Shown here piece after piece: positions 122 through 5,588 of a stretch of DNA of 5,588 nucleotides; the first letter of the stretch is position 1; the number at the start of each line of letters is the position of its first letter. Source of the DNA: Escherichia coli (GTDB lineage Bacteria; Pseudomonadota; Gammaproteobacteria; Enterobacterales; Enterobacteriaceae); the NCBI RefSeq assembly GCF_003334785.1, contig NZ_QOWV01000043.1. One strand, written 5' to 3'. Under the pieces are notes generated by a model. It worked only from the letters and a program-made list of their open reading frames with translations. It did no database searches and had not been told where the DNA came from. The translations under genes and the position numbers were made by a program.

Positions 122-1141
122 TTACTTCCTTCGCTTGTGTTCAAGATATTTCTCTGTAATCAGCATTTCAAAAAACTCTCCTGTTCTCAGACCGTAAACA
201 GTTCTGAGCTCATCAAGCATTTCTTTCACATTGCTTCTTATATGTATATTAATGGCCTTTTTACCATCACTCCGATATTTTTCCTTTTGTTTTTTCTGAT
301 GCCAGGCATGATTTATTCGTGTTCTGAACAGTTCAATGGTATCAGGCACTTCTTTCCATAAAGCAAAGGCGACAAGAGAGGCAAGATAATATTCTTTCGT
401 TGAAGATGGTATGAACCACCGGGTCACTGGGTTATGTACCGGATGTGTTTCATCCTGTTTTTGTTTCAGTCTTGTCCAGAACCACTGACACATTTCATCA
501 TCGTCAGGAAGGAGCCACTTAAACTTTTGACAAGCGCTTTTCTTTTTAAGCCACGCCTGCCTGAGTTCCTCGAGGTATATGCTTTTTGCATTTTTATTAA
601 TTAAAGAATGGCAGGAGTCAAAATATGAAATGATTACTTTTATTCGTTCGTTATGGGATGATGGATTATCCGGAAGGTTACTTTTTTTGTAAGTGTTTAA
701 CGTTTCATCGGTAACTGTTCGTATTTTTCTGACTTCAATTCCGTTTTTTATTCCTGATGAATTATGGTTTATTTTCGGGAAATTTGTATGATCTTCCTTC
801 GACAGATAAATAGTAGTCCAGGTAAAGAAAGTCGCAAGTTCGTCAGTTTTCAACCAGAGAAAACTCTCTTCAGGCAGTATTGCCTGCCCTGCAATAATTT
901 CAAGTTCATTAATTTCTTTGCTGAGAGTTTCTTCTGCAGTCGAACCAAAAACACCAAAAGAATTGTTTGAAGCTTTATAATACTTTTCTTTTAAAAACGA
1001 ATTAACATTTCTGATACAGTTTTGTGGGTTGTCAGGCGCAAACTGAGGGAATTCATTGGGGTATTTGTGATTCAGATATTCGGCATAAAACCGACATTTA
1101 CGGGGATCTTTGCATTTGATAAGCATCTGTTCGTTATTCAT
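122..1141 (-). CDS. Hypothetical protein, 339 aa; Cys-containing N-terminus and a C-terminal ribbon-helix-helix-like segment (by-eye inference)
   Basis: A 340-codon open frame in AT-rich DNA (about 32% G+C in a hand-counted sample at 601-660), where stop codons are frequent, so it is unlikely to be chance. ATG at 1139-1141 is preceded by GGAG (reverse complement of plus 1149-1152) with a 7-nt spacer. The terminator at 27-68 follows the stop. C-terminal residues KAINIHIRSNVKEMLDELRTVYGLRTGEFFEMLITEKYL show a strand-helix-turn-helix pattern reminiscent of Arc/MetJ/CopG/NikR N-domain. No catalytic motif recognised. Confidence 0.8.
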   Translation of the reverse strand: MNNEQMLIKCKDPRKCRFYAEYLNHKYPNEFPQFAPDNPQNCIRNVNSFLKEKYYKASNNSFGVFGSTAEETLSKEINELEIIAGQAILPEESFLWLKTDELATFFTWTTIYLSKEDHTNFPKINHNSSGIKNGIEVRKIRTVTDETLNTYKKSNLPDNPSSHNERIKVIISYFDSCHSLINKNAKSIYLEELRQAWLKKKSACQKFKWLLPDDDEMCQWFWTRLKQKQDETHPVHNPVTRWFIPSSTKEYYLASLVAFALWKEVPDTIELFRTRINHAWHQKKQKEKYRSDGKKAINIHIRSNVKEMLDELRTVYGLRTGEFFEMLITEKYLEHKRRK

Positions 1142-2267: not shown

Positions 2268-2438
2268 AAAGAAAAAATCGTTATTGTTCAGTTGACGTAT
2301 ATTTCCGGGTGATGGCTCCAGTCAGCAGAACATGTGTTTTTCGATGAATGACCCAATAACTTTTTCGTGAATTTCCACGGAGCGTGAAAAGCAAATCGTT
2401 TTTCGGTCCAGTCGTTTGATGCGGGAACGGAGTGTCAG

Positions 2439-2723
2439 ATGGTGGTGCTCAATACGCCGGGTAAATATCAATACGATTTGAGGAACCATTTGCTGGTTAA
2501 TCTCTTTCCGATAGCATTGGATGCAGAAATAACTACATCCAATGTAAATAAGCATCAATTGCACAGAAGCAATATACCTGCGGCCCTCTCCGGAAATTCC
2601 GGTATCACTGACTACGTACCGTTTTCAGCAGAACGAAATGCGGCGATGGTCATTTGGCGGACAGCCATAGATAGCCGTCCGGCTGTGTGTAACGATGAGG
2701 AAGGAACCCCGGGAACGTTATGA
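2439..2723 (+). CDS. Hypothetical 94-aa ORF, convergent with the 190-aa gene (uncertain)
   Basis: ATG at 2439 preceded by GGAG (2429-2432) with a 6-nt spacer. It lies in a G+C-normal segment, and its translation looks more protein-like than the overlapping minus-strand ORF 2322..2564, which is Cys/His/Arg/Ile-heavy. Its stop at 2721-2723 is 1 nt from the stop of the 190-aa gene (2725-2727). No recognisable family. Confidence 0.3.
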   Translation: MVVLNTPGKYQYDLRNHLLVNLFPIALDAEITTSNVNKHQLHRSNIPAALSGNSGITDYVPFSAERNAAMVIWRTAIDSRPAVCNDEEGTPGTL

Positions 2724-2724
2724 A

Positions 2725-3297
2725 TCAACAGGCGTATAACAGGTACTCGTCAATCATCAGTTCCAGCTCGCGCTTTTCCCGTTTGCGCGCCACAGCCCAG
2801 TTTTCAAGCTCTGCATGTGATTTATGCTTTAACTCTTCAGTCCAGGGCTGCATGGAGTGGGCACACATCAGATCATACCAGCACAGCCATATTAGCGTGT
2901 GGTAGAGATCACGATCGTCGAAACGCCGGAGCAGGCTGTTCAGCCTGTTTGCCAGCCGGCTTTCGCCCAGACGATGTAGCTCACTGAGTAAAACGCCGCC
3001 CAGATTAAAATGCGTAAGCAGCATGATTTCATGGGTCTGAATGCTGGTCATTAACCCTTCCTGAATGGCAGGAATGAACGGTGGCGTTCCCGGGTTGACG
3101 ACCTGATAGAGTCCCTGTGGTGCCACTGAGATGATGGTGCCTTTTTCCGGTAGAAAAAAGTGGGCCAGGGTCAGGCGGTGATAACCATGAAGATGCGGAG
3201 AGCCCATTCCATGAGCGACAATAAACCGGGTTACACTTGCCATCCATTTCTGATGCTGAATTAGCAGCAGATCACACCGGTTTTCAAGTTTTTGCAT
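2725..3297 (-). CDS. Hypothetical protein, 190 aa, likely co-transcribed downstream of alpA
   Basis: ATG at 3295-3297 preceded by AGGAG (reverse complement of plus 3306-3310) with an 8-nt spacer. It starts 85 bp after the alpA stop on the same strand, with no terminator visible between them. G+C resembles alpA. In enterobacterial islands the gene after alpA is often annotated as an inovirus Gp2 / YfjJ-YagK-type protein, but I cannot confirm that from sequence memory. Confidence 0.75.
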   Translation of the reverse strand: MQKLENRCDLLLIQHQKWMASVTRFIVAHGMGSPHLHGYHRLTLAHFFLPEKGTIISVAPQGLYQVVNPGTPPFIPAIQEGLMTSIQTHEIMLLTHFNLGGVLLSELHRLGESRLANRLNSLLRRFDDRDLYHTLIWLCWYDLMCAHSMQPWTEELKHKSHAELENWAVARKREKRELELMIDEYLLYAC

Positions 3298-3382
3298 AAT
3301 ATTCTCTCCTTTAGCACGCAGCAGAATGCCTCCGGAGGCCGGATAGTGTATTCGCTGCGGTTGAACGGATAACGGTCAGGAA

Positions 3383-3589
3383 TTACGGACGGGATTGTGC
3401 AATACGCGCCTGCAACCAGGCTTCCACTTCACTTTTCAGCCATCGGGAGCTGCGGCCGAGTTTGATGGGGGCCGGAAAGGCACCATCTTTGATGAGCTTA
3501 TAAAACCACTTATCGGTTAAGCCGGTCAGTTGAGTGATAAACGCCATGTCGACCATCTGGTCATCCATCAGCGAAACTGGGGTCTTCAT
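3383..3589 (-). CDS. alpA: AlpA-family phage/island transcriptional regulator (excision activator-like), 68 aa
   Basis: Translation MKTPVSLMDDQMVDMAFITQLTGLTDKWFYKLIKDGAFPAPIKLGRSSRWLKSEVEAWLQARIAQSRP carries the characteristic AlpA/Vis-type helix-turn-helix signature (LTGL...Y.LIK.G.FP.PIKLG..S.RW...EVEAWL). ATG at 3587-3589 is preceded by GGAGG (reverse complement of plus 3599-3603) with a 9-nt spacer. Size is typical of the family. Confidence 0.88.
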   Translation of the reverse strand: MKTPVSLMDDQMVDMAFITQLTGLTDKWFYKLIKDGAFPAPIKLGRSSRWLKSEVEAWLQARIAQSRP

Positions 3590-3971
3590 GAAAATGTTCC
3601 TCCGGATGTTGTTAATCTCAACCGGCGTTGGTGATGAAAACGACGCACCACCTTCACCGGCATAACAACCGGGGAGAAACGTAAAAAAGTTGAGGAATAT
3701 TCCTGCCAGGAGAGAAACTGTTGTGTACAGGCAATACAGGTTGTCTGTTTTGTCAGTGAAGCCGGTATAAACGGAAGATGATTTTGTGTTGCCGGAATAT
3801 GGGATGGCGTTTTGCCGTGACGGAATCAGTATTTTCAGTGATGATTATTACTGCGCAGGGGAGTATCGGAGATAAACCACGCCCTGTACCTGCCAGAGCT
3901 GTGGTTTGTATTTACTGAAAGGAAGATAAAGCAGAGGTAAACACTGTTGCGGTGAACGGAGAAGACTGAAA

Positions 3972-4763
3972 TTATTCTCTGTAATTACAAACAACAGTGA
4001 TCTGATCCGGTTTTTTTACCGTTACGGGTTTCCGGGGATCAATTTTATAGACCGGGGTAATGACCACGCCGGAATTTATGGAGAAAAGCGGGATCCAGCA
4101 ATAAACGTCCGGATATTTCTGTGTCTCCGGAATACCTTTTGCGCCAGAGGCCATCAGATCTTTAACGCTCACGAAAAATGACTGCCGCAGATCAAAAAAG
4201 TACTCGTCATATATCACGTCTTTTGCCAGCAGGATGACTGCATTACCAACAGCCACTTTTACAGGTGTTTCGCCCGATGGATTATCGTGATTGTATATTG
4301 TTCTTTCGATATAAATAAAACAGGCATATTTCGTCTTCTCCCCGGATAGCTGCATCTGGTATTCGCAAATGTCTTTGATATACCGACTTTCAACCCTTCC
4401 AATCATCTTATCCCGGCGATAGTGTCTTTTATGTTTCAGCGCGTACAGAACACCATTTGAACTGTCAAACTCCAGGACTCTTCTGGTGAAAAGTTTGTTT
4501 TCCCAGATTTCCAGACAATACTTCTCTGCACTGACGACATTGCGTTTGCGAGGAAGATCCCGTTGATACACTCCATTTAATAAGCGTGACTGCAGTTCGC
4601 CTGCAAGTTGATAATAACAGTTAATATCGTTAAGGACAGGTGCTGTGGCGCTGAGTAATGCGTCGATTACCTTAGAGCGCGAAAGTTTGTGGGTATGACA
4701 GTACTCATCCACAATTCGCAGCGTCTCATCACTAGTCATATTGAAAGTTATACGTGTTGTCAT
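3972..4763 (-). CDS. Hypothetical protein, 263 aa; N-terminal ribbon-helix-helix DNA-binding domain fused to a C-terminal domain of about 220 aa with unknown function
   Basis: A 264-codon open frame (about 43% G+C in a hand-counted sample at 4201-4260). ATG at 4761-4763 is the first possible in-frame start, since an in-frame stop lies 6 codons upstream. N-terminal residues TRITFNMTSDETLRIVDEYCHTHKLSRSKVIDALLSAT match a strand-helix-turn-helix RHH pattern (compare the NikR N-domain RVTITLDDDLLETLD...). No obvious Shine-Dalgarno: the upstream sequence is aacagaaaacttcatcATG. Confidence 0.75.
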   Translation of the reverse strand: MTTRITFNMTSDETLRIVDEYCHTHKLSRSKVIDALLSATAPVLNDINCYYQLAGELQSRLLNGVYQRDLPRKRNVVSAEKYCLEIWENKLFTRRVLEFDSSNGVLYALKHKRHYRRDKMIGRVESRYIKDICEYQMQLSGEKTKYACFIYIERTIYNHDNPSGETPVKVAVGNAVILLAKDVIYDEYFFDLRQSFFVSVKDLMASGAKGIPETQKYPDVYCWIPLFSINSGVVITPVYKIDPRKPVTVKKPDQITVVCNYRE

Positions 4764-5086
4764 GATGAAGTTTTCTGTTAATCATATTGGTTGATATGCA
4801 TAACATTCCATAAAAAACACTGTTAATTCATATAATTAATTTTTTTGTGTGTTTTTTCCTTGAGTGGTAGAAAGCAGGGTTACTGCCACTGTACTCAGCA
4901 TAACTCTATCACATAGAACCACAGAAAATGAAGCATTGCTCAGGGGGGAGGTACTTATACGAGTTCTCTGAACCGTGATAACCAGTATTTTTCATGTTGG
5001 GTGATTTGTCGTTACAGCTACAGGCAGTTCATGTACTATTAAAAAATAATTAAGGTTAATTAGTATTATTTATAGAAGTATGGTTA

Positions 5087-5286
5087 TGTAAATGAACCCT
5101 GTAATTCCACCTTGTAACCCAATCCTGTAGACGGATCTCTCATAAAGATATGCTCATAGAAGTATCTGTACAGAGATATTCTCTGTAGTAGTACTTGTAA
5201 CTCTGTCCTTAACTCTCTCTGCTGTAATGTAATCTCGTAACACCTGAATATAAATCTGTCATGTACACACACTGACTGTAATGTAC
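5087..5286. repeat. Cluster of TGTA-core short repeats (candidate operator or iteron array)
   Basis: About eleven TGTA/CGTA-core motifs in roughly 200 bp: ctgtaat at 5099, 5222 and 5276; ttgtaac at 5112 and 5195; ctgtag at 5125 and 5183; ctgtaca at 5166; tgtaca at 5262. The 10-mer ctgtaatgta recurs at 5222-5231 and 5276-5285. The cluster lies 320-520 bp upstream of the 263-aa gene start. Confidence 0.45.
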
Positions 5287-5428
5287 TTTGTTAAGTAATG
5301 CCTGTTGTGTGGAGGCTATTCTGGCTAAATAAGAGTATGAATCGTCAGTGTCAATAGTGTGGATAACGGTGGTTGAGGGAGAACTGTTAATGTTTTGCTT
5401 TTGCAGTTCACCTGATGAATTTTGGTAG

Positions 5429-5437: not shown

Positions 5438-5588
5438 ATTGTGATCGTAAAAAGTATACCTTATGCCATTAAACAGTCTTCTGGAGTGTTGTTTACTAGT
5501 AAGCGACTCGTCAGAACCGTATTGATATTTACTGAGAGCTCAGATCAACTTTCCAGGGCAACAGATCGCGTACCCGGTTTGCCGGCCA

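Follow-up and report, generated by a model that had tools for sequence, protein, structure and literature searches.

Two adjacent minus-strand genes, an alpA-like gene and a gene of the Aec62 family, form a conserved pair inside Escherichia coli genomic islands, and we put at about one half the probability that the AlpA protein of this pair promotes excision of its island by the P4-type integrase, as directionality factor or as activator, a role proposed by analogy with AlpA-family proteins of other islands. The stretch of DNA analyzed here (5,588 nucleotides, hereafter the window) is the deep interior of a common tRNA-inserted E. coli genomic island of the CP4-57 type.

An AlpA-family gene followed by an Aec62-family gene

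All substantial ORFs of the window lie on the minus strand. The features considered below are, in window coordinates:

122-1141, minus strand: putative regulator, 339 aa, annotated 'RepB' or 'transcriptional regulator' (TW10722 annotation, cluster names)
2322-2468, minus strand: divergent IS1-family transposase remnant, just downstream of the alpA/190-aa pair (PHROG_720, NCBIfam, RefSeq pseudogene)
2725-3297, minus strand: Aec62-family partner gene, 190 aa, product predicted mostly alpha-helical with one beta-hairpin
3319-3357, minus strand: candidate two-tier stem-loop in the alpA/partner spacer (RNAalifold consensus; weak evidence)
3383-3589, minus strand: alpA-like gene, 68 aa, encoding a basic winged-helix/HTH_17 DNA-binding protein (Pfam, PHROG and PDB matches)
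3590-3718, minus strand: conserved alpA leader/upstream block with the ribosome-binding site GGAGG, presumed promoter or operator (megablast)
3972-4763, minus strand: YagM-family gene, 263 aa, upstream of alpA (RefSeq 'YagM family protein')
5499-5588, plus strand: terminal repeat of an IS66-family (ISCro1-like) element; window 5480-5588 matches IS66/ISCro1 ends at 92-98%

A sequence-only reading of this DNA had described alpA and the ORF downstream of it on the minus strand, and both were found where it had placed them, each preceded by a GGAGG/AGGAG ribosome-binding site. The alpA product (computed mass 7.8 kDa, computed pI 9.6) matches the Pfam family PF05930 (Phage_AlpA) with an E value of 5e-9 and a score of 36.3 over positions 3-51 of the 51 in the model, a full-length HMM match that upholds the assignment to the AlpA family made in that reading. 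HTH_17 is a further Pfam match (E 6.7e-7) and PHROG excisionase/transcriptional-regulator families are matched at E 7e-10, while PADLOC gave merely weak HTH-type matches. Sequence matches in the PDB at E ≤ 10 are restricted to two proteins: 8c3t, which belongs to the AlpA family and is of unstated origin, and TorI, an excisionase (1z4h). The other solved AlpA-named chains have no sequence similarity to the alpA product at this threshold. The protein is of the small basic kind (about 60-80 aa) found in tyrosine-integrase elements, with a P4-type integrase present in the same island in TW10722, 300709, F41, L021 and L023. Strong purifying selection acts on alpA (dN/dS of 0.06-0.17 among island copies), and the exact protein occurs on at least 1000 contigs, where it is labelled 'AlpA family transcriptional regulator'. 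The alpA of the window is an ordinary, already annotated gene for an AlpA-family DNA-binding protein.

For the 190-aa product of the partner gene, currently annotated as 'hypothetical protein', Pfam, NCBIfam and PHROGs returned nothing. HMMER, run exhaustively against 1.84 billion representatives, identified 55 relatives, several of them full length at 27-42% identity, which share the invariant motifs G-[VI]-L-[LI]-S-E-C-x-R-L and L-x-W-L-C-W. The AlphaFold model is confident (pLDDT 86.8, pTM 0.86) and has no known fold relative. Given the full-length homologues and the confident model, this ORF is a genuine gene and not a chance ORF. Its relatives in AFDB come from Enterobacterales only and are named Aec62 or evidently misnamed; Aec62 itself, an ORF of the E. 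coli 'aec' island (UniProt Q5K5T0), belongs to the same family, with 36% identity and a TM-score of 0.92 to the partner protein. Values of dN/dS for Aec62 are mostly 0.2-0.4 in pairs with estimable dS, and 0.86 in one near-identical pair.

Other features of the window

The alpA/190-aa segment has a G+C content of 48-53%, and its flanks are AT-rich (29-39%). The 263-aa gene upstream of alpA is present as described earlier; its product is 25% identical to K-12 YagM (E 2e-14) and 24% identical to the UCP007319 protein of L003, and has a weak aCcr1-family match over residues 6-33, its N-terminal segment looking, from its sequence, like a ribbon-helix-helix. A terminator scan placed a terminator-like hairpin after this gene, at 3899-3881. 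The right-hand spacer of ~800 bp had been called repeat-rich, a label that we drop since Tandem Repeats Finder found nothing there; only a small YTGTAAY cluster is seen.

On the other side of the pair, the IS1 remnant matches the PHROG_720 transposase (E 9.5e-18) and, weakly, the NCBIfam IS1 family, and gave no blastn match to K-12 IS1B. The 339-aa protein shows merely a weak RepB-RCR_reg match (residues 293-331, E 0.21), and in TW10722 its gene is directly upstream of the YeeP/YfjP-type GTPase gene of the island. Two short segments of the AT-rich spacer, 1724-1744 and 2090-2108, match alpA in inverted orientation and were considered as decayed copies or antisense elements; neither tblastn nor blastn gave supporting similarity, and the matches are therefore probably due to chance.

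At the right end, homology to related islands is broken off by the IS66-family end, relatives matching to position 5498 only. We take GTAAGCG to be the usual IS66-family end. Against Rfam (E ≤ 1), the full window matched no RNA family, and no meaningful defence-system match was obtained with PADLOC for the 190-, 263- and 339-aa proteins. ARAGORN detected neither tRNA nor tmRNA in the window, which, together with the ORF list, agrees with the earlier statement that it contains no integrase or tRNA gene.

The window is island interior, with pheU as the insertion site in the closest genomes

The first 5498 bases of the window are 99.9% identical (9 differences) to the ETEC chromosomes TW10722 and 300709. 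In TW10722, the island starts at the tRNA-Phe gene pheU, followed at once by the gene of a 420-aa P4-type tyrosine integrase, which is on the strand of alpA and 44 kb upstream of it. A repeat of the final 23 nt of pheU stands at the far end of the island, where the junction is 98.8% identical to the uninterrupted pheU-yjdQ-cadC region of K-12; K-12 therefore represents the empty site and the island measures ~67 kb. The layout in 300709 is as in TW10722, with the integrase gene about 45 kb from alpA.

Downstream of the window, TW10722 carries genes for a YeeP-type GTPase, Cah/Ag43, DUF932, antirestriction, RadC/JAB, DUF987, CbeA/CbtA and DUF4942. The same 5.5-kb segment is present in F41 (98% identical, with an identical AlpA protein), but in a different island, the integrase of which is 41-42% identical to the pheU integrase and is encoded 24.6 kb from alpA on the same strand. 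The F41 backbone consists of the same genes as that of TW10722 except DUF4942, which is unannotated there. Searching with tblastn, we found no second AlpA-family gene either in the TW10722 island (both loci covering the island) or in the F41 loci examined, which include the whole stretch between integrase and alpA. A P4-type integrase, a tRNA, flanking repeats and a site empty in another strain, as in islands of the CP4-57/CP4-6/CP4-44 type, were all established for TW10722, the closest complete genome, and not on the window itself, and backbone genes of this type are found in TW10722 and F41 when compared with K-12 CP4-57 and CP4-6.

The context in TW10722 and 300709 bears out the view of the window as interior island sequence. 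It also allows the element type, previously held to be undecidable, to be assigned as CP4-57/CP4-6/CP4-44: at about 67 kb the island is neither a P4 satellite nor a PICI, which are compact (about 10-15 kb), and the island annotations include no gene for packaging, capsid redirection or a primase. The integrase and att site had been predicted beyond the right edge. The direction, the strand of alpA, the tRNA (pheU) and the 23-nt repeats are as predicted, but the distance is 24.6-45 kb, beyond the 5-10 kb of flank that had been proposed for inspection. What separates alpA from the integrase gene is not one gene and 800 bp but mobile cargo, made of anti-phage defence systems and IS elements; in TW10722 it comprises Qat, a SNF2/methyltransferase/helicase cluster (anti-phage defence), T6SS fragments, a group II intron and many IS elements. 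The K-12-type adjacency of int and alpA (about 1-2 kb, same strand) is absent from TW10722, 300709, F41, L021 and L023. Such a distance had seemed unusual, yet other island AlpA-family excision factors (VefA, SEN1998, Pseudomonas) are also distant from int.

With an IS1 remnant, IS66, an IS100 inside the GTPase gene and many pseudogenes, the surroundings of the pair are heavily degraded, and the window-type gene order is rearranged relative to that of the compact islands described below. On these grounds the pair could have lost its function, as part of an island that is decaying and no longer mobile, which we consider highly improbable: both ORFs are intact, the dN/dS values are those given above for alpA and Aec62 (including the single value of 0.86), and intact copies occur in thousands across Enterobacterales.

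Conservation of the pair across islands

Of 5426 complete E. coli genomes, 3545 (65%) carry the alpA gene with its leader of about 130 nt and a trailer of about 70 nt (window 3312-3718), almost always on the chromosome, with a median of 2 and a maximum of 7 copies. Nucleotide similarity between islands ends at about 3312-3318, just ahead of the partner gene. A gene of the Aec62 family (177-202 aa) is present downstream of alpA in every island examined, directly after it in most loci, with a zinc-ribbon or a 46-aa gene intervening in L003 and L013, and the synteny is the same in seven independent divergent loci. Aec62 comes in two deeply divergent types, and the alpA genes in front of them share 94-97% identity. 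The type of the window protein differs from the common one of L008-L010, to which it is about 35% identical.

In the compact divergent islands, the order is Gp2-like (YagK/YfjJ), AlpA, in some cases a zinc-ribbon gene, Aec62 and then cargo, which consists of type I restriction-modification, BrxR-GmrSD or a T6SS VgrG cassette. In L021 and L023, the P4-type integrase gene is 9-18 kb from alpA and convergent with it, and the GTPase/RadC backbone of the compact islands is on the side opposite the integrase.

Across islands, AlpA is 70-79% identical, as compared with 28-41% for Aec62, 32-39% for the Gp2-like protein and 30-35% for the zinc-ribbon protein. The identities of AlpA and of the integrase are 100% versus 41% between TW10722 and F41, 79% versus 42% between L021 and L023, and 78% versus 69% between TW10722 and L023; the cognate co-variation with the integrase that characterizes an excisionase was not seen in the six pairs compared, which suggests that the AlpA sequence does not track the integrase. 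We regard three points as mildly new, namely the invariable pairing of AlpA with Aec62, the orphan fold of the partner and this lack of co-variation.

The layout of the divergent islands bears on a further reading, in which the pair would be the induction switch of a phage-dependent element, either satellite-like or transduced: a phage cue would act through AlpA to bring about excision together with rolling-circle replication by the Gp2-like (YagK/YfjJ) protein, Aec62 serving as sensor or anti-repressor. There, alpA comes directly after the Gp2-like gene (weak Pfam REP_ORF2-G2P match), with zinc-ribbon genes near, and an integrase followed at a distance by Gp2-like and AlpA genes, with RadC and defence cargo, is also the layout described for Pseudomonas islands that a jumbo phage mobilizes (PMC12595487). 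In the window-type islands, however, the Gp2-like gene is apart from alpA and on the opposite strand, and the TW10722 island, at ~67 kb, is riddled with IS elements. The divergence between the window-type and L008-L010-type Aec62 proteins, where the dS of alpA is only 0.27-0.44, resembles that of a specificity determinant, but an Aec62-family gene was found in just 2 of 2.9 million viral contigs, and the islands have no annotated genes for packaging, capsid redirection or a primase. Overall, we find this reading decidedly improbable.

The alpA leader and the intergenic region

The leader co-occurs with alpA in the same 3545 of 5426 complete genomes (megablast matches spanning window 3312-3688/3718), and conserved columns remain even in L003, a relative at 79% identity. 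On the other side of alpA, the sequence block common to the islands stops at the 3' foot of the stem-loop (about 3312-3318). The RNAalifold consensus of this stem-loop over 6 loci contains 11 pairs, 3 of them with compensatory changes; single-sequence folds adopt the same shape, with z-scores of just -0.1 to -1.6. We considered the structure as a terminator or attenuator and did not retain it as such: its position is conserved, but there is no U-tract 3' of it and its folding energy is no better than that of shuffled sequences.

The main and serious rival of the excision-factor reading is that AlpA is a transcriptional regulator (activator or antiterminator-like) of backbone or cargo genes, with Aec62 as its first target and excision affected at most indirectly, a possibility to which we give odds well short of even. 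The position of alpA upstream of Aec62 is fixed in all loci examined, and in most of them the stem-loop lies between the two genes, although it has neither a U-tract nor a folding energy better than that of shuffled sequence. In the compact islands, the variable defence/T6SS cargo lies ahead of the pair in its reading direction, but the sequence after Aec62 is wholly different between islands, making a fixed downstream regulon unlikely, and in the window an IS1 remnant is found there. AlpA is uncoupled from the integrase lineage, is the best conserved protein relative to its neighbors and is under strong purifying selection, as would be expected if it contacted RNA polymerase or a conserved backbone promoter. 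AlpA proteins of PICIs act as activators and the P. aeruginosa AlpA is an antiterminator. The K-12 AlpA is itself a transcription factor (PMC2704930). Against these precedents, the window AlpA resembles no solved AlpA-named chain beyond 8c3t and TorI (E ≤ 10).

AlpA as a candidate excision factor

The reading that we prefer remains excision. The conserved gene pair, 865 bp in all, is part of the CP4-57-type island backbone. In the mechanism proposed, AlpA would bind DNA at the island ends and/or at the int promoter, as Vis, Rox, Hef, VefA, SEN1998 and TorI suggest by analogy, and would bias the P4-type integrase in favor of attL x attR excision. The partner, of the Aec62 family, probably modulates AlpA or acts downstream of it, and may be expressed by read-through past the stem-loop.

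AlpA-family proteins are known to assist P4-type integrases, as excision factors or as activators, and are often encoded at a distance from int (PMC2704930, PMC3014918, PMC8844411, PMC12595487), and promotion of excision is therefore favored for the window AlpA. We retain this role as the best guess because tblastn detected no other AlpA-family gene in the TW10722 island or the F41 loci examined; moreover, the islands have P4-type integrases and intact att repeats, and alpA is maintained. Several observations weigh against it. The window AlpA is merely 23-25% identical to K-12 AlpA. It is uncoupled from the integrase, with which, as with the att arms, a site-specific factor would be expected to co-vary. 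It is also far better conserved (70-79%) than its neighbors, a pattern easier to reconcile with a partner that every island, or the host, provides than with a private att site. Finally, the Shigella SRL island is listed with both Rox and Orf41, of which Rox is the excision stimulator, and we suspect that the present alpA type corresponds to Orf41 rather than to Rox. The description of the pair as an excision-regulator module in the sequence-only reading is thus correct as to the AlpA family; its excision part is one that we infer as well, with an AlpA uncoupled from the integrase lineage speaking against it.

A broader proposal is that alpA and Aec62 constitute a conserved control switch of widespread integrase-borne cargo/defence islands, AlpA acting via a conserved host or backbone partner instead of serving as a private excisionase, and Aec62 being the specificity or sensing component; we think it unlikely. 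The layout to which this proposal refers is int, cargo, Aec62-AlpA-Gp2-like and a RadC/CbtA backbone, and one example of a role for Aec62 within it would be to couple phage infection to activation or transfer of the island.

Significance

Reading the window as an alpA/Aec62 pair is correct but routine, the module being very common in E. coli islands and its alpA already annotated in RefSeq. It does have some, modest value, since roughly two of every three complete E. coli genomes carry this alpA subfamily, most typically as two copies. If AlpA does control excision, cross-talk would be expected between islands of the same cell that carry near-identical copies, which, if true, would bear on the loss and transfer of pathogenicity and defence islands. 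The Aec62-family partner, conserved and always after alpA in the loci examined, offers a cheap and well-defined experimental target.

Comparison with known AlpA systems

Outside E. coli, a similar layout is seen in the tmRNA-inserted islands of Pseudomonas moved by a jumbo phage, in which IntY is encoded at the 5' end and an inovirus Gp2-like protein and AlpA at the 3' end (PMC12595487). They share with the present islands a tyrosine integrase, defence cargo, a Gp2-like gene beside alpA and a RadC region (PMC12595487). They differ in genus and attachment site, and the adjacency of the Gp2-like gene to alpA has been lost from E. coli islands of the window type.

Rox (Shigella SRL), Hef (Yersinia HPI), VefA/VefB (Vibrio VPI-2), SEN1998 (Salmonella ROD21), Vis of P4 and TorI of KplE1 are, like the window AlpA, small HTH/winged-helix proteins associated with P4-type integrases; the likeness is one of description, TorI being in addition one of the two PDB sequence matches. 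Several of these factors are encoded mid-island or at the end opposite int (PMC2704930, PMC3014918, PMC8844411): VefA lies in the middle of VPI-2, and SEN1998 is about 28 locus tags from the int gene SEN1970 in ROD21 (PMC3014918, PMC8844411). For SRL, the two AlpA-like proteins Rox and Orf41 are listed (PMC2603039), stimulation of excision being documented for Rox only (PMC2704930). The window AlpA differs from these excision factors in its lack of co-variation with the integrase.

K-12 AlpA of CP4-57, an activator of intA that promotes excision, differs from the window AlpA in sequence (just 23-25% identity) and in setting, since in K-12 a distance of 1.2 kb separates alpA from intA and the next gene is yfjI (DUF3987), whereas in window-type islands int is 25-45 kb away and an Aec62-family gene follows. 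The two proteins nevertheless share PF05930, size (68 versus 70 aa for K-12) and basic character (pI 9.6 versus 10.2), and their islands are built alike, with a P4-type integrase at a tRNA/tmRNA site, then variable cargo, and then the same backbone genes (YfjP/YeeP GTPase, DUF932, antirestriction, RadC, DUF987 and CbtA-type toxin-antitoxin).

Putative flanking regulators and intergenic features

The two proteins encoded on either side of alpA, the 339-aa 'RepB'-annotated protein (window 122-1141) and the 263-aa YagM-family protein (window 3972-4763), both look like ribbon-helix-helix DNA-binding proteins. Judging from the sequences, the motif is N-terminal in the YagM-family protein, with a weak aCcr1-family match over residues 6-33, and C-terminal in the 'RepB'-annotated one, where a weak RepB-RCR_reg match covers residues 293-331. 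The window thus encodes, with alpA between the two flanking genes, three consecutive putative regulators. The other features of the window are as follows:

1142-2321: 1.2 kb of AT-rich sequence (29-39% G+C) in which all ORFs are short (≤ 61 aa)
2322-2723: region with a divergent IS1-family transposase remnant (PHROG_720, E = 1e-17)
2439-2723, + strand: 94-aa ORF overlapping the IS1-family remnant; hypothetical protein in RefSeq
3319-3357, - strand: two-tier stem-loop separating alpA from the Aec62-family gene
5086-5294: clustered short direct repeats, CTGTAAT / TTGTAAC
5499-5588: IS66-family (ISCro1-like) terminal repeat, beginning GTAAGCG and closing the window

The spacer holding the direct repeats is flanked in relatives by a yagM-like gene and hha, which are divergently oriented. 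Five YTGTAAY copies are found on the + strand inside 184 nt, and CTGTAAT occurs five times in the window versus 0.86 expected; the cluster may represent a binding array for a regulator.

In most of the loci that were folded or aligned, the stem-loop occupies the same position. It displays three compensatory pairs, and its 3' foot marks the end of the sequence block common to the islands. It lacks a U-tract and folds with no better energy than shuffles.

The AT-rich stretch has no Rfam match and shows no similarity to the other loci compared. Two short matches to the alpA sense strand were observed within it, of 19/21 nt (1724-1744) and 17/19 nt (2090-2108). A decayed copy of alpA in this stretch is unsupported by tblastn and blastn, and the two matches are thus probably due to chance. 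For the adjacent IS1-family remnant, blastn against the K-12 IS1 gave no match; the 94-aa ORF overlapping it is probably spurious.

Insertions at the window edge and at pheU

Homology of related genomes to the window stops at 5498, immediately before the IS66-family end, so the source genome carries an IS insertion there that is absent from the closest complete genomes. At the pheU site, the TW10722 island has a 'truncated integrase' at its far end (L001, 1984-2362); this is the same remnant that forms the K-12 pseudogene yjdQ (L024, 2692-3074), which adjoins pheU. An earlier P4-type element at this site had thus decayed before the present island arrived.

Comparison with compact relatives

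In compact relatives of the island, a cargo slot is located downstream of the Aec62-family gene (L021, 5473-15765; L023, 1844-21395; L013, 2081-9547), bounded on its far side in L021 and L023 by a P4-type integrase. Across these slots, the cargo comprises type I restriction-modification, BrxR-GmrSD with type I restriction-modification, a ubiquitin-like (Bub/E1/E2/JAB) system and a T6SS VgrG-effector-immunity cassette.
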